Shown here piece after piece: positions 36,517-60,063 of a DNA stretch of 64,000 nt. The stretch lies in assembly GCA_964388085.1 (NCBI GenBank), contig CAYLZW010000003.1:1279-65278 (forward strand), in the 5' to 3' direction. A program made the position numbers and the translations under genes. This DNA comes from an uncultured Myxococcales bacterium (GTDB lineage Bacteria > Myxococcota > UBA727 > CAYLZW01). The notes below the pieces were generated by a model. That model made no database searches, was not told the origin of the DNA, and worked only from the letters and a program-made list of their open reading frames with translations. Within the stretch, counting starts at the first letter, position 1, and each line of letters opens with the position of its first letter.

Positions 36517-38037
36517 TCAGACGGCGGTGTCCAACGAGCCGGCCGGCACCGCCTCCGCGGGCGCGACCTCGTCCCGCACCTCGCCGCCCACCTCGAACGG
36601 TCCCATCAGCGCGGCACGCACGGCCTTCTCGTCGGGGGCGTGAGCGAGGACCGTCACGTGGTCCCAGCCGCGCAGGCGGGCATTGCCCTTCGGCAACACC
36701 ACCTCGGCGCCCCGGCTGATGAGCGCGATCAGCGCGCCCTCGGGCAGCCGGAGCTCGCGAATACGGGGGCCTTCCACGCCATCGGGGCCGGGCAGATCGA
36801 CGACGATGAGGTCGTAGTCGCTCGGCGCCATCGTGATGAGGTCGAGGTTGAACAGCGGCTTCGGACGCGCGGGCTCGGACAGGCGCAGCCACTTCGCGAC
36901 GGTGCCGAGCGTCGAGCCCTGGACGAGGATCGACAGGATGACCGCGAAGAACACGAGGTTGAACACCTCCTCGCCGATGGCGAGCCCCGCCGCGGCCGGG
37001 TAGGTCGCGAGGACGATGGGGACGGCGCCGCGCAGGCCTGCCCACGAGGCGAAGACCTTGTTCTTCGTGCCGAACTTCATGCCGATGGTGCCGACGAAGA
37101 CCGAGATCGGGCGGGCGATGACGGTGAGCACGAGGAACAGCAGCGTGCCCTCCCACCAGAGGTTGGCCCAGCGCGTCGGGAACACCAGCAGGCCCATCAT
37201 GACGAACATGCCGATGTTGGCGATGGTCGAGAGCGCGCTCGAGAAATTGACGAGGCCGCGCTTGTGCACGAAGGGGCGGTTGCCCATCACGAAGCCGGCG
37301 CTGAAGACCGCGAGCATGCCGCTGGCCTGGGCCGCTTCGGACAAGCCGTAGGTCAGCAGCACGACCCCGAGGAAGAGCACGTAGTAGTGGCCGCGGTCCT
37401 CGGGCTTGAGGCGGTTGAACAGCCACACCGCGGCGCGCGCGACGCCATAGCCGATGATCGGCCCGGCCGTGAACTTCCAGAAGAACGAGAGCACCATCCC
37501 GGGGCCGTGCGCCTCACCCGACGCGAAGGCGGTCACGGCGACGACGGTGAGCAGGATGGCCATGGGGTCGTTGGCGGCGCTCTCGATCTCGACGGTGGCC
37601 GAGATCTTGGTCGGCAGCGACTGCCGGCGCAGGAGCGAGAAGATCGCCGCCGCGTCCGTCGACGAGATGATCACCGAGAGCAAGACCGCGCGCTCGTACG
37701 ACCAGTCGAGGCCCCAGCGCAGGCAGACGAAGGTGATGCCCGCCGTCAGCATCACGCCCCAGGTCGCGAGCCCACCCGCCGGCAGCGCGACCGCGCGGAA
37801 GTCACTCCGCTTCGTGACGAAGCCGCCATGGAAGAGGATGAACACCAAGGCCATGTTCGCGGCCTGGTTCGTCAGCATCACGTCTTCGAACGCCCACAAG
37901 TTGAGGACGTCGCTACCGAAGACGATGCCGCCGCCCAGCGCGACCAGGATGACCGGCACGCTGAAGCGCTCGAGCCATACGGCAGCGAGGACGACCGCGA
38001 TGAGGAGCATCGGCGCGACGATATAGGCGACGTCCAA
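36517..38037 (-). CDS. cvrA: K+/H+ antiporter, CvrA/NhaP2 type, with C-terminal RCK_C domain
   Basis: ISSTDAAAIF, EIESAANDPMA, SGMLAVF, WAGLRGAVPIVLA; start TTG 38037 or ATG 38010. Confidence 0.9.
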   Translation of the reverse strand: MDVAYIVAPMLLIAVVLAAVWLERFSVPVILVALGGGIVFGSDVLNLWAFEDVMLTNQAANMALVFILFHGGFVTKRSDFRAVALPAGGLATWGVMLTAGITFVCLRWGLDWSYERAVLLSVIISSTDAAAIFSLLRRQSLPTKISATVEIESAANDPMAILLTVVAVTAFASGEAHGPGMVLSFFWKFTAGPIIGYGVARAAVWLFNRLKPEDRGHYYVLFLGVVLLTYGLSEAAQASGMLAVFSAGFVMGNRPFVHKRGLVNFSSALSTIANIGMFVMMGLLVFPTRWANLWWEGTLLFLVLTVIARPISVFVGTIGMKFGTKNKVFASWAGLRGAVPIVLATYPAAAGLAIGEEVFNLVFFAVILSILVQGSTLGTVAKWLRLSEPARPKPLFNLDLITMAPSDYDLIVVDLPGPDGVEGPRIRELRLPEGALIALISRGAEVVLPKGNARLRGWDHVTVLAHAPDEKAVRAALMGPFEVGGEVRDEVAPAEAVPAGSLDTAV

Positions 38038-38076
38038 GATGCATCTTTCCGTCGACAAGGGCAGAGGCCACTGAGG

Positions 38077-38106
38077 GTCATAGCAGGCGCTACGCGCCTC
38101 CCTCAA
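38077..38106 (-). promoter_or_regulatory. Candidate sigma70 promoter for cvrA-oleABCD-ltaS
   Basis: TTGAGG-18 nt-(TGc)TATGAC; 6-bp dyad aggcgc/gcgcct in the spacer. Confidence 0.45.
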
Positions 38107-38179
38107 GGACGAAGGACCGCGAAGGCCGCCGTGAGCCTGCAGCGTTGACCGCGCCCGGGTGGCGTTCCGTTCTAGCCAC

Positions 38180-38222
38180 AAAAGAGAAGCGCCGCCCGGT
38201 CCCCGAAGGATCCGAGCGGCGC
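38180..38222 (-). terminator. Rho-independent terminator closing the lipoprotein operon
   Basis: Minus strand GCGCCGCTCGGATCC-TTCG-GGGACCGGGCGGCGC followed by TTCTCTTTT; C(UUCG)G loop. Confidence 0.85.
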
Positions 38223-38247
38223 CGCTCAGCTCGAACGTCGTCCTGCG

Positions 38248-41200
38248 TTACGGCACCGCGACGGCGACGCTCAGCTCGTACGGGTGTCGCTCGTTTGTGA
38301 GGAGCGAGTCCGTGCTCTCGACTGACACGTAGTACGTCGTACCCGCGGTGGTCGTCGGCAGTGTCACCTCGAGGTGCGGGGCGAGGTCGCTCGCGAGAGC
38401 GATCTCCGCCCCCGTGCCGTCGAACACGCGCAAGTTGATGAAGTCGAGCGCGTAGGGCACGAGGCCGTCCACGATGAGCTTCTCACCGTTCGTGAGGTCG
38501 CTGCCGAGGGTGACCGCGTAGTAGTCCGCGTCGTCGTCGTAGAACAGCCCGAACACCTGCGCAGGCAGCGTCAGCGCGTTCGCCGCCGCGGTGTCGTCGT
38601 TGGGCTCGGTCTCGACCAGACCCACGTTGCCGAGGCGTTCCACCTCGATGAGGTAGTTCTCGGGATAGTCGTCGGCGGTCGAGCGGTCGGCGACGAACTC
38701 GATGAAGAACGGGCCTGGGTCCGCGCCCGGCGAAAAGTACACCTCGCCCGCGTACAGCTCGCTGCCCGCGATCATCTGGTCGGCGGCGTTCAGCACGCTC
38801 ACGATGTTGTCGCCGCGACCGGTCTTGTTGTACCAGCGCACCGCGATGACCTCGTCGGCCGTCGGGTCGCCGTCGAAGTTGATCTGGAACGTATCCGTGT
38901 CGGTGTCGAAGGCGCTGCCCCAGGCAGACACCGTCCCGCCGACGGCGACCGCCGGGAGCGGGCTCGCCTCAACCGAGGAGTCGTTCGGCTCCACGTCGAG
39001 GACGTCGTCCCAGGTGTCCACGACGACGCGATACAGATCCTGCGTCGTGGTGCTGTCGCCCTCCACCTCGATGAAGAGAGTGCCCGGCGCGGCCATGGGG
39101 ATGAAGACCGTCGGGTCCTCATGCCAGACGTCCGCCAGCACGTTCTCCGCAGCGTCGAGGACGCGCACGTAGAGGTTCGCGACCTCCGTCATGTTTTCGA
39201 CGCTCACGCGCAACGCCGTGCCCGCGGGAAGACCCTCGCTGAACGCCAACTGGTACACGTCCGGCTCTGTCTCCAGCGTTCGGCCGATGACCTGTACCGG
39301 CAGATCGGCCGTCGCGAAGCTGCCCAGATCCTGCGCCGCCGCCGGGGTGTCGTTGGGCTCCACGTCCATGGCAGGCAACGTCACGCGCTTGACCTGGAGC
39401 AGGTACTGCACCGACCCGCTGAGGCCTGTGCCTTCCACTTCGAGCACGAAGGGCCCGGGGCCGTCACTCGGGAACAGCATCCAGCGCGACAGCGGCGCCG
39501 AGTGCGCCTGATACAGCTCGTCGTCGTCGAGCGAGGTGCCGGGCAGGCGGAAGCGCAGGTAGTTGGCGTTGTCGTCGCTCAGGCTCTCGATCTCGACCTG
39601 CAACACCTCGTTGGCGGCCAAGGGGCCGGCGAGGGTAAGCGTGTAGAGATCGAACTCGTCGTTATCGACGTTAGCGAGCAGTCGCAGCGCCTGGCCGGCG
39701 ACCTCCGCGATCGGCTGCGTGGCGTCCATGGTGTCGTTTGGCTCCACCTCCGTGAGCGTCGGCACGGGCAGCACGCTGGCGTCCATGGTCCATTCGTGAA
39801 CCCAGGGGTTCGGGGTGCTGCCGGGGATGCCGGCGTCGAAGCGCGCGAGCACGAAGCCGGGCGTCGTGCGGTAGGAGCGCAGCGTCCCCGGATCGTCCTC
39901 GCCTTGGAAACGCCGCTCGGTGGCGAAGCCCTGCGGGGTCAACGCGTACACGTCGACATCTGGCTCGCCGAGGGCGTACGTGAAGTCGTACTGCACGATG
40001 GCGGGGCCGGTGACCTCGACGAGGAACCACTCCGCGTTCGGGCGCTGCCCGACCTCGATGACGTCTCCGGCGAAGCTGGCGCTCTGCTCCGTGGTGCCGT
40101 CCCATGGTCCTGCGACGTGGGGTGTGCTGCTGCGAATGGCGACGCTCGGCGTCTCGTCGCTCGTGGCGGTGTTCACCACGATCCACCGGTAGGTGCCGGT
40201 CTCCTGCGCGTAGAAGATCGACTCGAAGAACGGATCCTCACCGCTGTAAACCGTCTGGCCGCTCGGCGAGAGCAACGTGACGTTCGCCGAGATGCCGTAG
40301 AAGTCCGTCATCACCACCTGCCCGGCGGTGGCGTCGAACGAGAAGCTGATGCCGCCGAGGCCGAGCACCGACAGCGCCGGGAGCTGGACGAGCTCGTCGA
40401 TCGCGACGGTGCCGAAGTCCACGGTGCCGAGCTGCGAGGCGCTGAGCGTGAACGGCACGTCGATGCCGTTCGAGGTCTGCCAGTCCAGCACCACCACGAG
40501 GCCGTCGCTGACGCTGACGTAAGAGCTCGTCACCGCGGTCTCGATGCCGCCGTCCTCGTCGAAGGGGATCTCGGCGAGAAAGGTGCCGTCCGCGCGGAAC
40601 AGGAGCAGCGCGGGCGTCGTGTTCCCGGTCGTCGCGGTGGACTCGAGGATGACAGGCGCGTCCGCCGCGGTGCTGATGTTGTAGAAGTTGTCCGACAGGC
40701 CGAGCAGGTTGCCGGGCGGCGCCTCGGCGAGCGTGCCGTCCTCGGCTACCGCCACGGCCACGGGCGTCGGCCACTCGAGCTGCTCGATGATGGCCGCGTA
40801 GTCCGCGTCGTCGGCGCCGATGGGCTCGGAGGCGCCTTGCAACACGAGGCTCGGCAGCACCGTCAGATCGTATTCGCCGTCGTAGGGCAGCACGACCTCG
40901 CGGTCGGCGTTGACGGTGAAGCCGAGCTGCGGCTCGCGGTAGTAGTCGTTCGGGCCGGTCAGCGTGAAGGCGGGCTGGAACGCGCCCGTCGAGATGACGC
41001 GAATGCGCAGCATCTGGCCGGCGCTGCCGGTGAAGCGCCACACGTCGCGGTCCTGATCGATGACGGCGTCCGCGTCGAAGTCGACGGGCCGCCCGATCGT
41101 GCCGACGAGCACCACGCGCTCACCGGCCGCCTCGAGCGTGACGCCCTCGGGAGCGCCGCCGAACAGCGGATCATTGGTCTCGGCCGCGCTCTCCGTGAGG

Positions 41201-41775
41201 TCTGACTCCGCGACGATGAGGTCGAGCGCGGAGAGGCACACGCCCTCTACGTCGGTGAGGCCGGGGCCGCAGATCAGGTTCGGCACGCAGCTCGCCGTGG
41301 CGGGGTCGAAGGTGGTGCCGGCACCGCAGTTCTCGTCCGGCAGGCACTCGCCGCTGGCCGTGTCGAGGTGCGTCCCGTCGCCGCAGACCACGTCGGGCAA
41401 GCAGGCGCCGGTGCTCGGGTCGAAGGTCGTCCCATCACCGCAGACCACGTCCGGATCGCACTGTCCGGTGGCCTCGTTGAAGGTCGTCCCCTCGCCGCAG
41501 ACGGAGTCGGGTTCACACTCCTGTGACGTCGCGTTGTAGGTGGTACCCGGCCCGCATTCGACGTCGGGCTCGCACTGTCCGCTGTCCGGATTGCGAGACG
41601 CGCCCTCGGCGCAGGGAGCCTCGCCGACGGTAGAGACACATTTCCCGTCGACCTCCTCCGTGTTGGGTCCGCACGTGATCGTGCCCGGGCTCTCCGGGCC
41701 CGGGCAGCCCGTCACGATGAGCGCGGTCAGCCCGAGAACGCCCGGGACCCCGCGATAGAGCTTCTTGTTACGCAT
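38248..41775 (-). CDS. Large surface lipoprotein D: 8 Cys-rich repeats plus beta-sandwich/PPC-like domains with 4 ExEPND motifs
   Basis: AGGAG 9 nt before ATG 41775; lipobox VTGC; paralog of the upstream gene. Confidence 0.85.
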   Translation of the reverse strand: MRNKKLYRGVPGVLGLTALIVTGCPGPESPGTITCGPNTEEVDGKCVSTVGEAPCAEGASRNPDSGQCEPDVECGPGTTYNATSQECEPDSVCGEGTTFNEATGQCDPDVVCGDGTTFDPSTGACLPDVVCGDGTHLDTASGECLPDENCGAGTTFDPATASCVPNLICGPGLTDVEGVCLSALDLIVAESDLTESAAETNDPLFGGAPEGVTLEAAGERVVLVGTIGRPVDFDADAVIDQDRDVWRFTGSAGQMLRIRVISTGAFQPAFTLTGPNDYYREPQLGFTVNADREVVLPYDGEYDLTVLPSLVLQGASEPIGADDADYAAIIEQLEWPTPVAVAVAEDGTLAEAPPGNLLGLSDNFYNISTAADAPVILESTATTGNTTPALLLFRADGTFLAEIPFDEDGGIETAVTSSYVSVSDGLVVVLDWQTSNGIDVPFTLSASQLGTVDFGTVAIDELVQLPALSVLGLGGISFSFDATAGQVVMTDFYGISANVTLLSPSGQTVYSGEDPFFESIFYAQETGTYRWIVVNTATSDETPSVAIRSSTPHVAGPWDGTTEQSASFAGDVIEVGQRPNAEWFLVEVTGPAIVQYDFTYALGEPDVDVYALTPQGFATERRFQGEDDPGTLRSYRTTPGFVLARFDAGIPGSTPNPWVHEWTMDASVLPVPTLTEVEPNDTMDATQPIAEVAGQALRLLANVDNDEFDLYTLTLAGPLAANEVLQVEIESLSDDNANYLRFRLPGTSLDDDELYQAHSAPLSRWMLFPSDGPGPFVLEVEGTGLSGSVQYLLQVKRVTLPAMDVEPNDTPAAAQDLGSFATADLPVQVIGRTLETEPDVYQLAFSEGLPAGTALRVSVENMTEVANLYVRVLDAAENVLADVWHEDPTVFIPMAAPGTLFIEVEGDSTTTQDLYRVVVDTWDDVLDVEPNDSSVEASPLPAVAVGGTVSAWGSAFDTDTDTFQINFDGDPTADEVIAVRWYNKTGRGDNIVSVLNAADQMIAGSELYAGEVYFSPGADPGPFFIEFVADRSTADDYPENYLIEVERLGNVGLVETEPNDDTAAANALTLPAQVFGLFYDDDADYYAVTLGSDLTNGEKLIVDGLVPYALDFINLRVFDGTGAEIALASDLAPHLEVTLPTTTAGTTYYVSVESTDSLLTNERHPYELSVAVAVP
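41236..41673 (-). repeat. Eight coding repeats of about 19 aa (CGxGTxxxxxTGxC)
   Basis: Read from the translation, e.g. DVVCGDGTTFDPSTGACLP and DVVCGDGTHLDTASGECLP; 57-bp period. Confidence 0.85.
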
Positions 41776-41798
41776 GTGCATGTACTCCTGAATCACGT

Positions 41799-44700
41799 TC
41801 ACGGGGTGATGACGGAGGTGTCGACGGTGCGCACCTCCAGAATGTACGTGTAGCCGCGCAAGGGATCGCTGCTCGAGTCGGTGCCCTCCACGGTGACCGT
41901 GTAGTCGCCCGCGGCCAGGCCCGTCGCGCTTTGGATCGTCATCTCGTCGTCGTCGTCCGTCGCGGCGCTGGTGCCGGCGGAGCGCAGGTGCACGTCGAAG
42001 GTCGTGCTGTTCGTGAGGTTGTGGAAATAGATCTCCACCGCCTCCGTCGCGCCGAGGTCCGCGGCCAACGTGAAGCTGAAGGTGTCGATCTGGGTGTTGT
42101 TGATCGAGCCGTGCAGGCTCGCGGGCAGCGCGCCGAGCGGGGTCGCCGTCGCAGCGTCGCCGTTTGGCTCCACCTCCGCCCGCGGTCCCGGCTCGATGAT
42201 CACCTCGTACAGCATCAAGTCAGGGTCCGTGCCCACGACATGGACGGCGTAGAGCGTCGCGCCCGTCGGCCCACTGACGGTCTCGCCGGGATCGTCGTCG
42301 TCGCTCGCCAGGAGCACCAGGTTGGCCGCGTCGCTCGCGTCGTAGAGCTCCACCACGATGTCGTCGCTGTTGAAGTAGTTCTGGTAGTTGAGCCAGATGC
42401 CGGCGTCCGCGGGGAACGTGGCGTCGAGCGTGAAGGTGAACCAGTCATCGTCGCTGTTGTTGCCGTTGCCTTCCGCGTACAGGAAGTCGCCGTCCGCCAG
42501 GGCGCCCAGGTAGTGCGCGCTGGCGATGTCGTCGTTCGGCTCCTTCTCGGCGGGCGCTCCGACCTCTACGCGCACGTAGTAGGGCTCCATGGAGCTGGAC
42601 GTCGCGCTGACGTGGACGGCGAACGGACCGGCGGTGGTGGGCGAGCTCTTCAGCACCGCGAGGTTGTCCGAGAAGGCGCTGATCAGCACCGGGTTGTCTA
42701 CGTCGCTGACGTCGTACAGCTCGGTGCGCAACGACGTCGTGTCGGAGAGGTTGAGCGCGCGGATCAGCAGGCCCTCGTCGGCGTCGAGCGCCGCGGGCAG
42801 GCTGAAGCTGAACCAGTCGGAGTCGCCGGTGCGCGTGGCGCCGAACGCGTACAGATAGCCGCCGTCCGGGAGCTCGCCGAGCGCGTACGCCGTCGCGAGA
42901 TCCTCATTGGGCTCGAGCTCGACGGGCACGTCGCTGACCACCTCGACCGTAAGCCGGTACGGGTGCGCCAAGCTCTCCCCCTCGACGCGGAGGAAGTAAT
43001 CGCCGGCGGGCACCTGGCTGCTCAAGATCTGGGGATGAATATCGCTCACCGAGGCCAGCACGTTGCCGACCGTGTCCTCGAAGAACAGATCGACGTCGCG
43101 GCTGCTGCTGAAGTTGTCGAAGCGGATGTGCAGCGCCTCGTTGGCGGCCAGCGTCGGCACGGTGAACTTGAAGAAGTCGACGTCGTCGTCGACGAGCTGT
43201 CCATACCAGGTGGCCGGCAGCGCGTCGGCGGCGTCGGCCTCCGCGCTCGTGCCGTTGGGCTCGACCTCGGAGGGAGTGTCGACGACCTGGACGCGCAGCA
43301 TGTAGTTTTGGGCAATCTCGGCGAGGAAGTACTCCGAGATCTCGATGTAGAACGTGCTGCTGCTCTGTGTCGCCGCGCCGTTCAAGATCACCTTCTGATT
43401 GAAGTCACCGAAGTATCTCTCCGCGGAGCTGACCACCTGATCGAGCTCGTCGAAGATCGCCACACGGAAGCTGTCGCTGGTGAAGCTGGTCGCGGTCGTG
43501 TCGAGGTTCTCGACGTGGATCTCGATGCTCTGGCCGGGGGGCAGCGGGGCGTCCAAGGTGAGCTTGTAGCGGTCCACCTCCTCCTCCTTGAGGAAGCCGT
43601 ACCCCACGACCGGCAGCGCGCCGAGCTCGTTCGCCGTGCTGCTGACGTCGTTCGGCTCCACGTCGATGACCGCCGGGATCGGCATGGCGGTCGCCGTCAC
43701 GCTCCAGTCCACGACGGCGGTGCTGTCCGCCTCCAGCAGGACGATCAGCGGATCATTCGCCGCGGTCTCGGCGTGCACGGCTTGCTCGCGCGCGCGCCAG
43801 TAGAATCGGTCCACCTGGCCGGCGCGGTTGTAGACCGTGATCTCCGGATCACCCACCTCGACCTTGGTCTTCAGGGAGAGCAGCGCCTCGGCGGTGGTGC
43901 GGACCACCATCCACGCCGCGGTTGGGCCGACGGCGTCGATCGTCAGGAGATGGTCGCCGACGCTCCCCTGCTGCATGGTCGCCGGATCGAGCGTGCCGAG
44001 GTCGAGCGGGACGATGGGGTTGTAGACGAGCGACGCGTCCTCGTCCTCTCCCGTGTCGTCGTTGAACACGAAGAACGTGTACGAGGCGGGGGCGCCGTAG
44101 AAGAAGCCGCTATCCTCGTCGTACAGGATGCCGTAGGTGCCGCCGTCGGTCTGCATCTGGATGTCGGGTCTCGAGGTGTTGTCGACGTCCCAGGTGAGAA
44201 TCAACGGCGAGGGCAGAGTCACCGTGAACGCCGCCATGGCCTCGCCGAGGATCGGCGTCGTCGCGGTCTGACCCGGTACGCCGTCCGTCACCGTGCCGCC
44301 TTGTACGTGCGGCGCCTCGGCGACGCGCAGCGTGTACGCGTCATCGGACGCCGTCGAGGACTGCCAGTCGACGACGACGGTGGTGCCGGGGTCTTCCTTC
44401 ACCAGCGTGCCGACCCAGGCGCCCTCTTCGAGGTTCAGGTCCACGTAGGTGATGAGCGCGCCGCTCGCGTCGAACGCGAGGATGGCGGGCGGGTTCGCGG
44501 GGTTCGGCTCCGCGAAGATCAGGGACACCGCGTCGCCGACATCGGCGTCGAGCAGCAGGAAGTTGTCCGACAGATCACGCAGGTTGCCCGTGACCTCGAG
44601 CGGCACCGCCTGATCTGCGGCCGGCACGATGGTGGTGGGCGTCGGGTGCTCGAGCGCCTCGATGACGCCGACGTAGCCGGAGCTCGTGCTGCCGAGCGGC

Positions 44701-45724
44701 AGCGCGGTGCTGACGAACGCGGTCGGCACCACGGTGATCTCGTACACGCCATCGAAGGGCAGCACGACCTCACGGCTGGTGTCGTTCGTGGAGAGCAGCG
44801 GGCTCACACGGCGGTAGCCGTTCGGTCCCTCCACGATGAAGGCAGGCTGCGGCAGGCCGGTGCCGAGCACGCTGATCTTGAGGTATTGGCCGGCGCTGCC
44901 CGTCACGCTCCAGACGTCGCGGTCCTGGGTGAGCGTGCCGTTGCCGCCGAAGTCGTTCGGGCGGTCGATGTTGCCGACGAAGACCGTCTGCTCTCCCACG
45001 GGCTCGAGCGTGAGCGGCTCGGGCACACCGCCAAACAGCGGGTCGTTCTGGTCCGGAATCGACTCCGTGGCGTCGGCCTCGAGGCCTACGGCCACGTTCG
45101 GATCGACGCACTGTCCGCCGGCGACGATCTGGCCGGGGCCGCACGCGGTGTTCGACTCGCACAGCCCGGTGTCGAGGTTCAGCACCGAGCCGGGAGCGCA
45201 GGTGCCCACGGCGACGCACTCGCCGTCCTCGAGCACCGTACCGACGCCGCAGGCCGCCTCGGGGAGGCACTCGCCCGACGTCTCGTCGAGGACCGTGCCG
45301 GGGCCGCAGCTCGCGACGGGGATGCACTCGCCGGAGGCGAGATCGAGCTCGGTGCCGGGGCCACACTCGGCGATGGAGACGCACTCGCCCGTGGCGGGAT
45401 CGGCCACGGTGCCGTCGCCGCAGCGCACGGTGGGCTCACACTTGCCGGTGGTGTCGTCGAAGATCGTGCCTTCGCCGCAACTGTCGATGGCGTCGACGAC
45501 GGCGACGCAGGTGCCGTTTCGGTCTTCGGTGCCTTCACCGCACTCGAGGTCCGTCGGCGTCTGGCCGGGGCCGCAGCCGACCGACAGGAGCGCGGGCAGC
45601 AGGAACGAGCCGAGGAGGGTTCGCCGCGTCGCGCGGGCAGAAGGGGGGGAGCCAAGGGTCAAAATCCGGTTGAGCAGCACGCGTCGCCTCCGCAATCCGC
45701 TGGGAAATCGAGCATCGTCATGAG

Positions 45725-45728
<4 letters not shown>
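41799..45728 (-). CDS. Large surface lipoprotein C: 8 Cys-rich repeats plus PPC-like domains with 5 ExEPN motifs
   Basis: Lipobox LSVGC preceded by TRRTLL; ATGA overlap with the upstream gene; shares the NDPLFGG...QDRDVW...REVVLP block with D. Confidence 0.85.
45108..45542 (-). repeat. Eight coding Cys-rich repeats (CGxGTxxxxxTGxC)
   Basis: Read from the translation, e.g. VASCGPGTVLDETSGECLP. Confidence 0.85.
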
Positions 45729-48967
<3,239 letters not shown>

Positions 48968-49010
48968 GGAGCACCTGTTCTGTCAGCGACGCGGTCTCGT
49001 GAGGGACGGT

Positions 49011-49040
49011 CTCGTCGCCGACACGCTGGTCAGCGACGAG
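49011..49040 (-). other. Intercistronic 12-bp stem-loop
   Basis: Minus strand ctcgtcgctgac-cagcgt-gtcggcgacgag (one G-U pair). Confidence 0.55.
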
Positions 49041-49065
49041 AGCGGATGTTCGTGCGGTTCGGCGG

Positions 49066-51714
49066 TCATGGCAGGATGCACTCGGCGGTGTAGGAGACCT
49101 CGATCTCCGTGCCGGCCTCCGGGATGGCGGTGCCATTGAACTCGATGCTGTTGTCGATCGGGTCGAAGGACCAGCCGTTCTCCTCGCCGTAGGGCACTTC
49201 GACGCCGTTGATCTTGACGACGATGGTGTCGGGGTCGGGCTCGCGGGAGAGGCCGAATCGGGTCAGCGCGAAGAACGTGCCGAGGCCGATCTGCTCCATC
49301 ACGCTCGCCCAGTTGTCGGTGCAGATGGAGCCAAATACGCCGCCCGTGGCGAGCACGATGTCGAGGTATCGCGGGCCCGCGACGGCGTCGCCGCCGGGGC
49401 CGTCACAGCCGCCGGGGACGTCGCCGGCGATGGCGTTGGCGATCAGCGCCTGCACGCGATACCCCTTGGCGGCCAGCAAAATGTCGAGCCAGTCGTTGAC
49501 GGCGCCGTTGCTGCTGTCGCGCTCGTCGGAGACATACACGATCGAGAGCAGCGCCTCGTCGCGCAGGAAGTTCTCGTTCGGTCCGCCGCTGTTCGTGTTT
49601 GGGGGCGTGACGGCGAGGGCCGAGGCCTCGAGCCCCTTCTCCGTGGCCGAGCCGCTGGTGCCGACGTCCGCCATCGCGGTGAACGCGGCCTCCGGGTCGG
49701 GTACGGCGTTCGGGCCTGTCTTCGCGATAAAGGGGGCGACGAGCCGACCCGCTTCCCCCGGATTATTGCCCACGGTGTCGGTGGTGGTGACGCCGAGGTG
49801 GTAGTCGACGTCCGCCTGCGTGGTGAAGAAGTTGATGAAGGACGAAAAGTTCTGCGCGAGGGAGGTCTGCTCCTGGCCCATGGAGCCGGAGTTGTCGATG
49901 ACGAAGAGGATGTCGACGGCCGGGCGCTCGTGCTGGATGAACACGTCCGTCCGGTTGGCCGCCTCCACGGTGTCGCTCGAGCCGTACACCGAGGCGCGCA
50001 GGCGTGGCTGCAGGGTCCCCGTGGATTTGACCTCGAGCTGACCGGCGTGGCTGTCGACCACCGGCGCGGAGCTCATGCGCACCTGAATGATCCTGCTCGC
50101 GCCCGGGTGGAGCATGGTGCCGGGCGCTACACCCGTGATGATCTCGAAGTTCGGGTCGGACAGACCCGTGTACACGACCTCGTCGATGCGGCCGGCCACG
50201 GGGCCGACGTTCTCCAGCTCGATGTCGTAAGTGTCCGAGACGCAGCCCTGCGTGATGGTGCCGAAGTACTGCGCCCGCGGCGTCAAGCGGAAGTCGGCGT
50301 AGCTGCCAAATCCAATCAGGTCGGCGTCGGACCCGTCGTCCCCGTGGTCGATGCTGATGACACCGAGCGCGGGAGCGTTGTGCTGCGGCGTAAACGCGAC
50401 CTGGATGTCGAGCGTCTCGCCGGGGGCGAGCACGCCCGACGCCGGCGGGTTCACGATGACGAAGTCCGTTGCGCCCTCGGTCACCGTCACGGCGTCGATG
50501 GGGCAGTCCACGATCGAGATGTTCTTCGCCCGGATCGTCCCTTCGGAGGTGAGGCCGACCCCGAGCGTGTCGAAGAACAGCGGGGAGGGCGCGAACGAGA
50601 TGGCGCAGCGAGGCTGCGGGTCCGCGAGCCCGGAGAGCGCGAGATCGAACGACGTGCCCTCGACGGTGGTGATGCGCACGATGCCCGAGCGCACGCCGAC
50701 CGCGGTCGGGTGGAACGCGAGCTCGAGCGCGCCGCTCTCTGTCGGGGCCAACACGGTGTCGACGGCCGGGCTGCTCGTCAGCGTAAAGTCGTCGGCGCCC
50801 GCCGTCACCTCGACGGACGCGATGGTGCAGGGGATCTCGCCGACACTGACGATGCTGCCGCTGGCGACGGTCTCGCTGAACGCCACCGTCGCGCGCGGGA
50901 AGACGATCGGATTGGGCGTGCCGGAGAGGCGGCAGAGCAGCTCGTCCGCAGCGTCCCCTGTGAGCGATGCCGTCAGCTCGAGCGCACCGTCGACGACGAT
51001 CGCGACCTCACCCGTGTGCGTCCCCGCGACCTTCGGCTCGTACGCCACCGTCATCTGCGTCGAGGCTCCCGACGCGATCACGTCCTCGCCGGCGCTCACC
51101 AGCACGAAGTGGTCGGCTCCCGCCGTGATGCGCGCGCCGCCGACATCGCAGTCACCCGTGCCGTTGTTCGTCACGGTCACGCTGGCCTCGTCGCGCTCGC
51201 CCGTGGTGAGCGAAGAGAAGGTCACGCTCTGCGGCTCGAGGGACACCGAGCACTCCGGCGGCAGGACGCCTTCGCCGGCGACGTGCTGACGTGCGGCGGG
51301 GCCAGCGATGTTCTCCCCCGGCAGGTCGAAGTGCAGCTCGGCCTCGTACTCACCCACGAGCGTTGGTCGAAAGCGCACAGGCACGAAGAAGTGCTCACCG
51401 ACGCCGAAGGGGGACGGGACCTCCGTCTGCACGATCTGGAAGGGTGACTCGACGCTCTCCGGATCCTCGACCGGGTTGCCTTCGCCGTCGAGGGGGACGA
51501 GCACGACATCGATGCGGTCCACCGGGACGTTGCCGCAATTCGTGACGGCCACTGTCTGCGTCTCCGCCGTCCGCACGAGCTGCTCGCCGAAATCCATGTC
51601 GCCGGGACGCAGGCAGAACTCGTACGTGGCGGTCAGCGTGGTCTCGTCGCAACCTTCGCAGGCAGCGGTGAACGCCACCAAAAGAAGGACCGGTAAGGTG
51701 ATTGCGCGCCTCAT
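49066..51714 (-). CDS. Large surface lipoprotein A: five choice-of-anchor-D/ASH-like Ig domains plus a vWA domain
   Basis: AGGAG RBS; lipobox FTAAC; five xxPxxxxF...VTNxG units; VDILFVIDNSGSM (MIDAS DxSxS), GVTTTD, YVSDE. Confidence 0.88.
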   Translation of the reverse strand: MRRAITLPVLLLVAFTAACEGCDETTLTATYEFCLRPGDMDFGEQLVRTAETQTVAVTNCGNVPVDRIDVVLVPLDGEGNPVEDPESVESPFQIVQTEVPSPFGVGEHFFVPVRFRPTLVGEYEAELHFDLPGENIAGPAARQHVAGEGVLPPECSVSLEPQSVTFSSLTTGERDEASVTVTNNGTGDCDVGGARITAGADHFVLVSAGEDVIASGASTQMTVAYEPKVAGTHTGEVAIVVDGALELTASLTGDAADELLCRLSGTPNPIVFPRATVAFSETVASGSIVSVGEIPCTIASVEVTAGADDFTLTSSPAVDTVLAPTESGALELAFHPTAVGVRSGIVRITTVEGTSFDLALSGLADPQPRCAISFAPSPLFFDTLGVGLTSEGTIRAKNISIVDCPIDAVTVTEGATDFVIVNPPASGVLAPGETLDIQVAFTPQHNAPALGVISIDHGDDGSDADLIGFGSYADFRLTPRAQYFGTITQGCVSDTYDIELENVGPVAGRIDEVVYTGLSDPNFEIITGVAPGTMLHPGASRIIQVRMSSAPVVDSHAGQLEVKSTGTLQPRLRASVYGSSDTVEAANRTDVFIQHERPAVDILFVIDNSGSMGQEQTSLAQNFSSFINFFTTQADVDYHLGVTTTDTVGNNPGEAGRLVAPFIAKTGPNAVPDPEAAFTAMADVGTSGSATEKGLEASALAVTPPNTNSGGPNENFLRDEALLSIVYVSDERDSSNGAVNDWLDILLAAKGYRVQALIANAIAGDVPGGCDGPGGDAVAGPRYLDIVLATGGVFGSICTDNWASVMEQIGLGTFFALTRFGLSREPDPDTIVVKINGVEVPYGEENGWSFDPIDNSIEFNGTAIPEAGTEIEVSYTAECILP

Positions 51715-51752
51715 GACGAACTCCTGCGGACAAGAAGACCAGGCCTGCTCGC

Positions 51753-51807
51753 GTTATCCGCGCCCAATTCGCAGACGTCAAACCTGAGACACTCTCAGAA
51801 TTCTGAG
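51753..51807 (-). promoter_or_regulatory. sigma70-like promoter plus 14-bp palindromic operator-like site for the lipoprotein operon
   Basis: TTGACG (51781-51776)-17 nt-GATAAC (51758-51753); perfect palindrome CTCAGAATTCTGAG at 51794-51807, in an unusually AT-rich stretch. Confidence 0.6.
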
Positions 51808-52089
51808 GTAAACCAGGCTGTTACTCTGCTAGGCGCCCGAAACTTCCTGAAACAGAATCCAAATTCTCGCACCGGGGCACCGCGGGGGCCCCCCTTTCAT
51901 GCACGCAAACGGGCGGTTCCGCTCGTGGATCCCTGCCCCGATCTGGGTCGCCTGCGTCAGCGGTGCGCGCGAAGGCTCTCGCCGCGCGCCCCTTGGCTTG
52001 CTAGGACGCCTCACACAGCGCCCCCCGCGGGTTGGGGAGGGGCGCCGATCCTGTCCTGCCTGCGACGGTAACTCCCCGAAAAGACGCCA

Positions 52090-58283: not shown

Positions 58284-58491
58284 GCTCACCTCGGTCTCGC
58301 GGCCTCAAAGGTTGCCTGCCCTCAAGGCCCTCTGACAGGTATCACACGGGGCGCTGGCCACGTCGGGCAGGACCCGTGGGCGGAGCCCGGGGGAGCCGAC
58401 GTGAGCGCGCCGACGTCGGAGGTCCGGCGACCCCGGACGGGGCGAGCCCCTTTACGCCGACAGGACCGCTGGCCTACAACGCTCAGCGTCG

Positions 58492-60063
58492 ATGTCGCTT
58501 CTCAGGCGCATGACCTCGAGCCGGGTCCACGTCGCTGAACGGGCGCTCCGCAAGGGCGACCTGGCGGGCGCGATCACGGCCATGGAGGCGGCCCTCAACA
58601 AAGCGCCCGACGACGTGAAGGCCCGGCGGCAGCTCGCCGACACCTACGCGAAGGCCGGTCGCTTCGCGGACGCCGTGCGCGAGCTGACCACCCTGGCGGA
58701 GGCCTTCGCCGCCGAGGGCCTGCTGCTCAAGGCCTCGTCCGCCTACAAGGCCATCCTCGACATCGACCCCGACCACGACGACGCCCAGCAGAAGCTCGCG
58801 AGCCTGCAGGCGAACAAGAGCAGCGCGCTCGCCGACGCGGCGCGGCAGGCCGAGGGCGCTCCTTCGGGTCAAGCTCCGCCACGCTTGCCCGACGACACCA
58901 CCCTCGACGCCGACGAGCTCGTCGAGGCCGAGGACGTGCTCGAGGCCGACGACGTCGCCGAAGAGATCGAGCGCTCGCACGAGGACGAGCCCCCGGTGGC
59001 CGCGCTCGAGGACGCGACCCTCGAGGTCGAGCCTGCCGCGCTCGGCATGGAAGACGCCACCCTCGAGGTGGCGGCGCCGGCCGCGCGCGATCTCGAGGAC
59101 GCGACGATCGAGGTGCAGAACCCCGAAGCCGCCGCGGCGGAGGCGTTCGAGGCCGACGCCGAGGCCGTCGACGACGCCGAAGAGCTCGAGCTGGAGGACG
59201 CCGACGATCTCATCGTCGCCGAGCTCACCTCCCAGGGCGATGACGACGTCGAGCTCGATCGCGCGGTGCTGCCGGAGCTGCCGCTGTTCTCGGACCTCCC
59301 GCAGCACGCCTTCGACGAGCTCATCAGCGATCTCGACCAGTGGCGCGTGCCGAGCGGCGCGGTCATCGTGCGCCAGGGCGAGGTCGGGCACAGCTTCTTT
59401 GTCGTCGTCAGCGGTGAGGCGCGCGTGGAGCGTGACGGCGACGAGCTCGCCACCCTCGGCCGCGGGGAGCTGTTCGGCGAGATGGCGCTGCTCTCGAGGA
59501 ACCCGCGCGCGGCCTCCGTGGTGGCCGCGTCGGCGTGCGAGCTGTTCGAGATCAAGCGCGAGCGCATCGACGACCTGATGACGCGCTACCCGTCGGTAGA
59601 GCGCGTGTTGCAGAAGTTCTGCCGGCAGCGGCTGCTCTCGAACGTGCTGCGCGCGTCGCTCTTCGAGGGCCTCGACGAGACGCTCGCGCGCGAGATGATC
59701 GGCGCCTTCAAGGACAAGCGCGTCTCCATGGGGCAACGCGTGGTGAGCCAGGGCGACAAGGGCCGCGGGCTGTTCGTGGTCCTCGCCGGCACCCTCGACG
59801 TGTCGCGGGAGGACGAGGGCGCCGTGCGTACGGTCTCCCAGCTCGCCGAGGGCGACGTGTTCGGTGAGATGTCGCTGATCTTCGGCGAGCCGGCGTCCGC
59901 GTCCGTGATGGCGCTCTCGAACACGACGCTGCTGACGCTGTCGCAGAAGGGCTTCCAGGCGTTCTGCAAGCGCCACCCAGTCATGAAGCGGCGCCTCGAG
60001 GCGCTCGCGCGCGGCCGCCGTGACGGGAACGCCAACGCCAAAAGCGGCGACGCGGCCGAGTGA
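58492..60063 (+). CDS. TPR + tandem cyclic-nucleotide-binding domain protein, no HTH
   Basis: N-terminal TPRs; acidic linker; FGEMALL...PRAASV and FGEMSLI...PASASV. Confidence 0.88.
   Translation: MSLLRRMTSSRVHVAERALRKGDLAGAITAMEAALNKAPDDVKARRQLADTYAKAGRFADAVRELTTLAEAFAAEGLLLKASSAYKAILDIDPDHDDAQQKLASLQANKSSALADAARQAEGAPSGQAPPRLPDDTTLDADELVEAEDVLEADDVAEEIERSHEDEPPVAALEDATLEVEPAALGMEDATLEVAAPAARDLEDATIEVQNPEAAAAEAFEADAEAVDDAEELELEDADDLIVAELTSQGDDDVELDRAVLPELPLFSDLPQHAFDELISDLDQWRVPSGAVIVRQGEVGHSFFVVVSGEARVERDGDELATLGRGELFGEMALLSRNPRAASVVAASACELFEIKRERIDDLMTRYPSVERVLQKFCRQRLLSNVLRASLFEGLDETLAREMIGAFKDKRVSMGQRVVSQGDKGRGLFVVLAGTLDVSREDEGAVRTVSQLAEGDVFGEMSLIFGEPASASVMALSNTTLLTLSQKGFQAFCKRHPVMKRRLEALARGRRDGNANAKSGDAAE

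Follow-up and report, generated by a model that had tools for sequence, protein, structure and literature searches.

Four adjacent genes of an uncultured soil bacterium of the Myxococcales appear to form an operon of non-enzymatic lipoproteins that would work as one Ca2+-dependent binding set, in adhesion or ligand capture, on the outward side of the outer membrane; we give this reading about even chances of being right. The genes, A to D, lie in a window of 64,000 nucleotides, which is the whole stretch of DNA that was analyzed. They are four co-oriented minus-strand ORFs in the order A-B-C-D, encoding 882, 1080, 1309, and 1184 aa at the coordinates given by the first-pass annotation. The domain types are known, and the cassette itself is undescribed and self-contained. 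Homologs of all four products are unannotated, and a literature search found no paper on this cassette. The features of the locus are as follows.

51715 to 52071, no strand: divergent intergenic region from gene A to coaX, presumed to hold the operon promoter (placed by inference only) and 5' leader.
49066 to 51714, minus strand: gene A, 882-aa lipoprotein with signal peptide and lipobox, five Ig-like (choice-of-anchor D) domains, a vWA/MIDAS domain, and a small C-terminal beta-sandwich.
49969 to 51624, minus strand: five Ig-like/ASH-type beta-sandwiches of A (stalk), residues 31 to 582, from NF012200, AF2, and Foldseek.
49249 to 49968, minus strand: putative divergent vWA domain of A, residues 583 to 822, with the MIDAS D607-x-S609-x-S611 at 49882 to 49896.
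49010 to 49041, minus strand: A-B spacer hairpin, a perfect 13-bp hairpin without a U-tract in the 98-nt spacer.
45725 to 48967, minus strand: gene B, 1080-aa lipoprotein in which 12 MopE-type Cys/Asp repeats alternate with four PPC-like domains.
41799 to 45728, minus strand: gene C, lipoprotein, 1309-aa ORF (called start at 45680, giving 1293 aa).
45108 to 45575, minus strand: eight Cys hairpins of C (Cys stalk).
43671 to 45035, minus strand: four beta-sandwich domains of C.
41808 to 43667, minus strand: five EPND-type PPC domains of C (repeat HMM).
38248 to 41802, minus strand: gene D, lipoprotein, 1184-aa ORF (ATG at 41775, giving 1175 aa).
41236 to 41706, minus strand: eight Cys hairpins of D (Cys stalk).
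39760 to 41160, minus strand: four beta-sandwich domains of D.
38257 to 39753, minus strand: four EPND-type PPC domains of D (repeat HMM).
38179 to 38227, minus strand: intrinsic terminator-like hairpin, GC-rich, 3' of D, followed by the U-tract UUCUCUUUU.

Coding on the minus strand was evident from GC content by codon position, which in the four ORFs was 0.62 to 0.69 at first, 0.44 to 0.49 at second, and 0.87 to 0.92 at third positions; the long plus-strand ORFs at the locus are high-GC shadows. Each product carries a lipobox (TAAC in A, VAGC in B, SVGC in C, and VTGC in D). Together, ORF coordinates, codon-position GC, and lipoboxes agreed with the initial description of four large, co-oriented lipoprotein genes. 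A lipobox and an N-terminal signal peptide were found in all 27 products of seven cassettes, which are predicted to be lipidated, and Cys counts were conserved over seven cassettes (13 to 14 in A, 67 to 69 in B, and 17 to 21 in C and D). The B and C genes overlap as ATGA, and the C stop codon overlaps a GTG that precedes the AGGAG-ATG of D. A and B are separated by 98 nt at this locus; four other cassettes instead show a 4-nt overlap of the two genes. With such junctions the four genes would be translationally coupled. Their products are very acidic and disulfide-rich and are predicted to be lipid-anchored.

Next, the flanks and spacers were examined. The upstream neighbor coaX is divergent, on the plus strand, and starts at 52072 (Pan_kinase, 3e-75); the downstream neighbor is an unrelated Na+/H+ exchanger. 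It had been proposed that one promoter region and one strong terminator bound the operon. The terminator held up: the hairpin 3' of D folds at -37.8 kcal/mol (z = -3.8), a value equaled by 0 of 200 shuffles. The promoter did not, as only an intergenic region lies upstream of A and no sigma-70-like promoter or consensus was detectable in it. An Rfam scan of the leader and spacers gave 0 matches, and no regulatory RNA was found there. The folding z-score of the A-B spacer as a whole was not significant, and other cassettes, with overlapping A and B genes, lack this spacer. A point against the proposed surface set is that neither a factor that would export or flip surface lipoproteins nor a beta-barrel partner was seen near the window's cassette.

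Product A had been described as five Ig-like domains followed by a vWA/MIDAS domain, and profile scans were in line with this. The choice-of-anchor D model NF012200 matched A at 126.8 bits over five stretches (cut-off, 45 bits), and the best Foldseek matches of the AF2 model of A (pLDDT 79) were Ig/ASH arrays. Mean pairwise identity in the Ig region was 0.33 to 0.46 among orthologs; the vWA domain is the best-conserved domain of the cassette, at 0.59 identity. Pfam vWA models stayed below threshold on A (PF00092, 14.7 versus 23.8 bits; PF13519, 15.2 versus 27), and a PDB sequence and profile search with the domain gave no match. The MIDAS residues (DxSxS...T...D) D607, S609, S611, T644/T645, and D730/D733 were invariant in six orthologs, and E731 was also conserved. 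In the AF2 model, strands and helices alternate over residues 599 to 821 (pLDDT 65 to 83); Foldseek matches were dominated by the Ig array. At the domain level, A resembles two kinds of adhesin, consistent with the earlier view of the vWA domain as adhesin-like: residues 588 to 801 only aligned with positions 634 to 875 of the CglD model NF033765 (51.5 bits; cut-off, 400), and residues 599 to 660 only aligned with the Bdellovibrio MIDAS adhesin model NF052240 (48.1 bits; cut-off, 700; 9e-13). Subthreshold and domain-level matches, the motif, and predicted secondary structure thus suggest a vWA domain in A.

[quoted passage not shown] A and CglD are both lipoproteins whose vWA domain, putative in A, is beta-I-like and bears the DxSxS MIDAS motif. 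CglD combines the vWA domain, Ca2+-binding Cys/Asp-rich repeats, and a Cys-rich stalk in one protein; the cassette contains the same kinds of modules, but its Ca2+-repeat and Cys-stalk modules are on the separate proteins B, C, and D, and A has an Ig stalk and lacks COMP-like DxDxDG repeats and an EGF-like Cys stalk. An assignment of A as CglD itself was rejected: the score was far below the cut-off, and the true equivalog is elsewhere in the genome (G000:C135; 1202-aa ORF, 629 bits). CglD-type genes are present in genomes with or without the cassette, and no link of the cassette to Glt genes was seen. Bd0875 of Bdellovibrio bacteriovorus needs its MIDAS motif for a dynamic step in cell-cell adhesion (PMC11003981). 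Bd0875, the protein of model NF052240, and A have the MIDAS vWA domain in common, in its N-terminal part (about 60 residues aligned); their architecture and gene context differ. In the proposed set, the MIDAS vWA domain of A on its five-Ig stalk would be a metal-dependent ligand-binding element, comparable to the vWA domains of CglB, CglD, and Bd0875.

Product B consists of MopE-type repeats and PPC-like domains, as had been claimed, and the two together cover its sequence fully. PF11617 (MopE-type repeat) matched B at 286.6 bits in 12 stretches (gathering score, 27), and PF04151 (PPC) exceeded its gathering score of 25.9 bits in B (31.2), C (27.0), and D (26.0). The four PPC-like domains of B (residues 158 to 290, 338 to 472, 783 to 893, and 951 to 1080) were joined to one another by hhalign, and to the EPND repeats of C and D at up to 97% probability. 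PDB profile matches of B were to the MopE N terminus (2vov, residues 6 to 58) and the ColG collagen-binding domain (CBD) (5iku, 1.2e-4). A copper protein was rejected for B because the MopE match is restricted to, and the likeness ends at, the N-terminal repeat of 2vov; Helland et al. in 2008 reportedly placed the copper site of MopE outside that repeat. A COMP/TSP3 identity for the repeats was likewise rejected, with no TSP_3 or COMP match in Pfam or PDB, and the analogy is functional only. A search of the own genome with NF033662 (acid_disulf_rpt) gave no match on the contig (C3), hence none on B. In MopE-repeat-plus-PPC lipoproteins of Myxococcota, as in B, repeats alternate with PPC-like domains; B is very acidic and disulfide rich, with 68 Cys. 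The PF11617 repeat is common to hundreds of proteins, and the MopE-type motif occurs also in the teneurin C-rich domain (PMC3278476). The full-length orthologs of B that were found fall into about 12 clusters, and all of them come from cassette contigs, of about ten different lengths. B would form a rod of MopE repeats, stiffened by Ca2+ and disulfides, that bears four collagenase-type (PPC) binding domains.

The composition of B and its partners also bears on a different placement, in which the products face the periplasm or are structural or cation-buffering proteins of the envelope, forming an acidic Ca2+- or metal-sequestering coat or a mineral-nucleating layer. Net charges are -80 (A), -197 (B), -156 (C), and -145 (D), a total of about -578, with 15% Asp in B and ordinary charges in the genes neighboring the cassette. 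Such a coat would also fit the annotation of PF11617 as a putative metal-binding motif, the nature of MopE as a surface metal-binding protein, and the default, periplasm-facing orientation of lipoproteins. We nevertheless regard it as improbable: the MopE match covers the N-terminal repeat and not the region reported to hold the copper site, choice-of-anchor-D, vWA/MIDAS, and CUB/CBD-like modules are typical of extracellular ligand binders, and a transporter or metal-homeostasis gene was linked in 0 of 8 contexts. From the extracellular-type domains and many disulfides, the products are predicted to be surface exposed, as the proposed binding set would require.

Products C and D had been recognized as two paralogs with Cys-repeat stalks and PPC-like domains, and the two indeed align along their full length at about 30% identity. 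After eight Cys hairpins each, C has nine and D has eight jelly-roll/PPC domains. The EPND-repeat HMM found five domains in C and four in D (1e-22 to 1e-44). These PPC-like domains bear an ExEPND...DxD signature, with ExEPND at the N terminus and the acidic DxD cluster downstream, in the positions at which published ColG CBD structures are reported to bind Ca2+; here and elsewhere in the cassette, Ca2+ ligands are suggested by such motifs. The AF2 model of D was all-beta (pLDDT 83.3, pTM 0.71), and its top Foldseek matches included cubilin CUB5-8 (3kq4, 3e-12), neuropilin, the Ca2+-bound tandem CBD s3a-s3b of ColG (5iku, 5e-9), and PCPE-1 CUB1-2. Thus, the proposed similarity of the PPC/ExEPND modules to collagenase CBDs was upheld by both signature and model. 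C and D share tandem jelly-roll domains with the ColG/ColH CBDs and with the CUB arrays of cubilin, neuropilin, and PCPE-1, and ExEPND plus DxD with ColG-type CBDs; unlike ColG/ColH, the cassette proteins lack a peptidase, have an N-terminal lipid anchor, and carry up to nine domains per chain. Matches to the "lipo-invert" tail NF058595, FxDxF PEP-CTERM, and T9SS tail models were below cut-off, fell on PPC strands, and were taken as fold echoes.

This likeness raises the possibility that the cassette captures substrate for hydrolases encoded elsewhere, with PPC/CBD-type domains holding a polymer (collagen-like, chitin, or another fiber) while enzymes act in trans. PPC domains usually accompany secreted proteases (PF04151 description), ColG CBDs and PCPE-1 are among the structural neighbors, distant relatives bear P_proprotein domains, and the Cys hairpins gave weak CBM_14 matches. 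Those matches are short, however; D alone attains the cut-off, and none of its stretches does so individually. A hydrolase, TonB-dependent transporter, or uptake gene was linked in no context examined; substrate capture in this form therefore has a slim chance.

Within C and D, the membrane-proximal part appears conserved and the distal domains fast-evolving: identity is about 50% in the stalk and first domain and about 0.30 in the distal jelly-roll domains, the least conserved. C of the window's clade also has one PPC domain more than most orthologs (five versus four). Both features would suit a polymorphic receptor for kin, prey, or substrate, in which conserved stalks carry variable distal domains that set specificity, as in TraA/TraB. 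The general plan is alike: a surface protein with a Cys-repeat stalk and variable beta-sandwich head, and an operon partner; Cys-repeat stalks are a feature of TraA as well (see PMC6372800 and PMC6626042). Missing from the cassette are the PA14-like variable domain, the MYXO-CTERM tag, and a TraB/OmpA-like partner; Pfam and NCBIfam scans of the cassette found neither PA14-like domain nor MYXO-CTERM, the C termini end in a beta-strand, and the anchor is the lipobox. In addition, the identities compare distant lineages, not strains, and the cassette is rare; we regard a recognition receptor of this kind as improbable. In the preferred reading, C and D would each display eight to nine CUB/PPC-like jelly-roll domains on an eight-hairpin Cys stalk as part of the shared binding set.

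To ascertain whether the products are non-catalytic, as first claimed, the HMM scan proposed with that claim was run. Pfam and NCBIfam scans (E <= 0.1) of all four products revealed no enzyme domain, nor did PDB sequence and profile searches; a motif scan of the four found no HExxH and no lone-standing catalytic motif, and AF2 models of D and A analyzed with Foldseek showed no enzyme fold. A peptidase catalytic domain alongside PPC in the same protein was absent by Pfam, NCBIfam, HExxH, and Foldseek. The earlier figure of about 13 binding modules proved too low: we counted 5 Ig domains, 1 vWA domain, about 22 beta-sandwich/PPC-like domains, 12 MopE repeats, and 16 Cys hairpins.

The cassette was then examined in other genomes. 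At least seven further contigs, from MAGs or metagenomes, have the A-B-C-D order: it was found in G004, GCA_011392945.1, two contigs of JGI 3300041024, GCA_034680565.1, and JGI 3300078353/63, and GCA_016934455.1 has B-C-D and a partial upstream ORF. No junction in the other cassettes exceeds 68 nt. The four-gene order, the conservation of which had been proposed as a check, is kept in these distant relatives although their flanks are unrelated. Overall, about twenty related lineages from metagenomes have the cassette intact. Shared synteny was rejected as the cause of the fixed order, since the window's flank proteins are not beside other cassettes, with the exception of a cNMP-binding TPR protein in one (L017). 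Among 401 genomes sampled from the phylum, only 3 had full-length C/D, and a profile scan of genome contigs with an 8-sequence alignment found G004 and otherwise only partial relatives, matching at the N terminus, in MAGs of Sandaracinaceae and Kofleriaceae. Pairwise identities of A to D co-vary (r = 0.39 to 0.83). In a tree of C and D, the C clade had a support of 1.0, and the C/D duplication is therefore older than all sampled cassettes.

A conserved order shows that the genes are inherited and expressed together; it does not show that the products form a complex, and the four might be independent binders, each with its own ligand, placed in one operon for joint expression with no hetero-oligomer. 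C/D-like proteins occur without A or B, solo (L043) or as four tandem paralogs (L044), and so C and D are able to work without the other parts. This and related genomes have numerous other loci for lipoproteins with vWA and Ig domains that resemble A, and the pTM of D modeled alone suggests a self-contained fold. Against such independence, lineages that are only 35 to 55% identical and whose flanks change have strictly the same gene order and content, the stop/start overlaps suggest stoichiometric synthesis, B orthologs occur in cassettes only, and both old paralogs are kept in every sampled cassette. We consider independent binders rather unlikely. In the binding set that we favor, the four products may associate physically, with adhesion as the output. 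A more specific version, which seems to us a long shot, is a "split CglD": the integrin-like MIDAS head of A, the Ca2+-repeat rod of B, and the CUB/CBD-like display arms of C and D would assemble through their conserved membrane-proximal parts into a four-subunit, Ca2+-bridged surface organelle, mobile between myxobacterial lineages as a unit, that confers a distinct capacity to bind substrate or prey, independently of the Glt gliding apparatus.

Myxobacterial surface adhesion has so far been understood through a few single proteins (CglB, CglD, and TraA). Here, a fixed four-gene set consists of binding modules only, stays intact despite changing neighbors, and is rare in the phylum. If the products assemble, they would constitute a new multi-subunit, metal-dependent bacterial adhesin and a case from nature in which integrin, Ca2+-repeat, and CUB-type modules act jointly outside animals; if they do not, they would be another set of large myxobacterial surface lipoproteins. 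The cassette also gives a family and a genomic setting to roughly 40 clusters of 1,100- to 1,300-aa "hypothetical" proteins and to a wider superfamily with more than 1,000 representatives. No RNA runs holding the locus were found, and its reads were present in four soil DNA runs of one study.

The region at 38248-51714 holds four co-oriented ORFs on the minus strand, termed A to D, which make up a real, undescribed, self-contained cassette of known domain types from uncultured soil Myxococcota.

Genes of the A-B-C-D cassette
49066-51714, minus strand, gene A, 882 aa
45725-48967, minus strand, gene B, 1080 aa
41799-45728, minus strand, gene C, 1309 aa
38248-41802, minus strand, gene D, 1184 aa

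The source MAG (6.9 Mb, 727 contigs) was assembled from soil metagenome reads, and the window has a G+C content of ~69%. In A-D, codon-position G+C (GC1, 0.62-0.69; GC2, 0.44-0.49; GC3, 0.87-0.92) has the pattern typical of coding sequence in this genome; long ORFs on the plus strand of the cassette region showed the antisense pattern and were rejected as genes. All four products have an N-terminal signal peptide, basic or hydrophobic, whose end is a lipobox (A, TAAC; B, VAGC; C, SVGC; D, VTGC), and so did 27/27 products of the seven cassettes compared. ORFs, codon usage, and lipoboxes thus agree with the four lipoprotein genes proposed in the first-pass annotation. The B stop codon overlaps an ATG of C (ATGA), and the C stop codon overlaps a GTG that is followed by AGGAG and ATG, the D start used by gene callers. 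The A-B spacer is 98 nt in the window, compared to a 4-nt A/B overlap in four other cassettes. This spacer contains a perfect 13-bp hairpin (49010-49041, minus strand) that lacks a U-tract and could set the ratio of A to BCD expression or stabilize the mRNA.

Directly 3' of D, a GC-rich hairpin is followed by UUCUCUUUU (-37.8 kcal/mol; z = -3.8; 0/200 shuffles as stable), in keeping with the strong terminator proposed. The single promoter region also proposed was not recovered: because neither a sigma-70-like promoter upstream of A nor an Rfam element at the cassette was detected, it amounts to a 357-nt intergenic region. Beyond it lie divergent housekeeping genes (coaX, poly(A)/CCA polymerase, and prfC), and the downstream neighbor encodes an unrelated Na+/H+ exchanger. 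G+C is 0.66-0.69 across the cassette (window 38000-50000) versus 0.70-0.73 in most other parts of the window; the lower value is consistent with an Asp/Asn/Thr-rich composition, although acquisition could also account for it.

Domain analysis bore out the predicted module content. Protein A starts with five Ig domains of the choice-of-anchor-D/ASH type, matched by NF012200 in five stretches at 126.8 bits; a divergent vWA domain comes next, and then a beta-sandwich of 60 residues. The vWA domain scored under the Pfam cut-offs and had no relative in the PDB by sequence; it aligned with CglD model positions 634-875, which are beta-I-like (3.7e-14), and with a Bdellovibrio MIDAS-adhesin model (9e-13). 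Its DxSxS...T...D residues (D607, S609, S611, T644/645, and D730/733) did not change across six orthologs. In the AF2 model of A, strands and helices alternate in the vWA region, and Foldseek neighbors of the model were Ig/ASH arrays, cadherins, and S-layer proteins.

Protein B carries 12 MopE-type repeats (PF11617, 286.6 bits) and four PPC-like domains (residues 158-290, 338-472, 783-893, and 951-1080), leaving only stretches of at most about 60 aa unassigned. In hhalign comparisons, the PPC-like domains matched one another (up to 99.9%) as well as the PPC domains of C/D (up to 97%). The only PDB matches of the B profile were the MopE N-terminal repeat (2vov) and the ColG tandem collagen-binding domain (5iku). 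Full-length B orthologs form ~12 clusters on contigs whose sizes match those of the C/D-bearing contigs, and the remaining matches share only MopE repeats; B is a cassette-specific subfamily within a very large class of MopE-repeat/PPC proteins. The NCBIfam model NF033662 gave no match to B.

C and D are paralogs (~30% identity). Each has a stalk in which a 19-residue Cys hairpin (C-x10-12-C; Cys spacings of 13 and 6) occurs eight times, and then four beta-sandwich domains, the first and third distantly PPC-like and the second and fourth without a family match. In the C-terminal part, clear PPC domains number five in C and four in D, and all of them start with E-x-E-P-N-D. The AF2 model of D (pLDDT 83.3, pTM 0.71) is all-beta, with cubilin CUB5-8, neuropilin, Ca2+-bound ColG s3a-s3b, PCPE-1 CUB, and other jelly-roll arrays as Foldseek neighbors. 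Not counting lipobox and signal-peptide residues, C and D contain 16 Cys apiece and B contains 66 (33 possible disulfides).

The modules that make up all four products, namely MIDAS vWA domains, PPC/CBD and CUB-like jelly rolls bearing acidic ExEPND...DxD clusters, and MopE/teneurin-type Cys/Asp repeats (PMC3278476), act in other proteins as metal-dependent extracellular binders. We hold with moderate confidence that the cassette encodes an outer-membrane-anchored, Ca2+-dependent, nonenzymatic binding set, because of the module types, lipoboxes, disulfides, extreme acidity, coupled translation, and fixed gene set. A would be the MIDAS head that binds ligand, B a stiff rod of Ca2+ repeats, and C and D a pair of display arms whose distal domains evolve fast; we infer that the proteins are surface exposed, bind Ca2+, assemble into one complex, and function in adhesion.

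No HExxH motif and no catalytic domain, hidden or otherwise, was found in A-D, and Foldseek with the D model returned no enzyme fold. The first-pass claim that catalytic motifs are lacking therefore held except for a single GxSxG, which lies within a PPC-like domain of B. In the family-less C/D domains, the residues that never vary are Gly, Trp, Tyr, and one Asp, a set suggestive of a structural and not a catalytic role. That the cassette captures substrate for enzymes encoded elsewhere seems improbable. Net charges are -80 (A), -197 (B), -156 (C), and -145 (D), with pI near 4.1, and the neighboring gene products are ordinary. A periplasmic or cation-buffering coat is a reading we doubt strongly.

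Gene order is kept rather than scattered. A-B-C-D occurs in G004, a genome of another family in the same order (identities of 45/53/37/38%), in GCA_011392945.1 and GCA_034680565.1, on two contigs of JGI 3300041024, and in JGI 3300078353/63; GCA_016934455.1 has B-C-D and a partial ORF upstream. Junctions in these cassettes are, without exception, overlaps or ≤68 nt, and flanks are unrelated in each. The C proteins form one clade of the C/D tree (support 1.0); the C/D duplication is thus older than any cassette sampled, with both copies retained throughout. The four genes are co-inherited, and their pairwise identities co-vary (r 0.39-0.83). Co-regulated binders acting independently, instead of the binding set favored here, appear unlikely. 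The vWA domain (0.59) and B (0.53; MopE runs, 0.62-0.64) are the best-conserved parts and the distal C/D domains (~0.3) the least conserved; the C/D stalk and first domain (~0.5) fall in between. A polymorphic recognition receptor would be a further interpretation, to which we give little credence. The number of domains at the distal end of C differs between lineages: the window's C and its closest relatives (1279-1313 aa) have five EPND-type PPC domains (41808-43667 in the window), and most other orthologs (1136-1167 aa) have four.

Distribution is rare and patchy. Full-length C/D were present in 3/401 sampled genomes of the phylum (the window's own, G004, and G070, from another order), with one cassette per genome; named partial relatives come from Sandaracinaceae and Kofleriaceae MAGs. 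An exhaustive C/D profile search of 1.84 billion proteins yielded ~40 full-length representatives, and full-length homologs group into ~35 clusters (90% identity), every one of metagenome or MAG origin and annotated "hypothetical." The superfamily (1,040 representatives at E ≤ 1e-30) includes 900-1,100-aa proteins sharing the stalk and first six domains as well as PPC-repeat-rich giants of 2,000-4,900 aa. The giants (P0086, P0091, P0092, P0123, P0124, and others in the hit list), matched by the C/D PPC-repeat part in ≤11 stretches, are an uncharacterized class of very long PPC-array proteins. Wider-family members occur solo or, as on metagenome contig L044 (1684-14634; 794, 1130, 917, and 1244 aa; P_proprotein/PPC domains), in a tandem run of four paralogs lacking A and B, and the family tends toward tandem expansion. 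The window's genome also has a partial paralog (contig C307, 1663-2877, plus strand; 28-30% identity) with only the Cys-hairpin stalk and first two beta-sandwich domains.

Large modular surface lipoproteins are frequent in myxobacteria. Judged by sequence, the cassette would belong with the vWA/MIDAS-centered surface lipoprotein adhesins as a variant. MIDAS vWA domains function in gliding adhesion in CglB and CglD (CglD: 10.1101/2023.10.19.562135) and in prey invasion in Bd0875 (PMC11003981). CglD combines a Ca2+-repeat module, a Cys stalk, and a beta-I vWA domain in one chain (10.1101/2023.10.19.562135), whereas comparable modules are split over four chains here. Since Pfam and the PDB gave no TSP3 or COMP match, this likeness is one of analogy, not homology. 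A itself was rejected as CglD: its score of 51.5 bits is below the 400-bit cut-off, it has no COMP-like repeats, and it coexists with a true CglD equivalog elsewhere in the genome (contig C135, 11342-14767, plus strand; 629 bits, 1202-aa ORF); by analogy, A would work like CglD without being CglD. This equivalog marks the host as a myxobacterium that probably has the gliding adhesion toolkit. CglD-type genes occur in cassette genomes G004 and G070 and in the cassette-less genome G003. The PA14 domain and MYXO-CTERM tag of TraA are missing from the cassette products.

A protein with TPR and tandem cNMP-binding domains is encoded 6.7 kb upstream of A (58405-60063, plus strand). Its 34%-identical homolog directly adjoins A, divergently, on cassette-bearing metagenome contig L017 (2258-4006, minus strand). 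It is the single flank protein common to any two cassettes, which may be coincidence. The GTDB order of this 6.9-Mb genome also includes a family (f6) whose highly complete genomes measure 0.3-3.4 Mb, a size spread that is unusual for a myxobacterial order.
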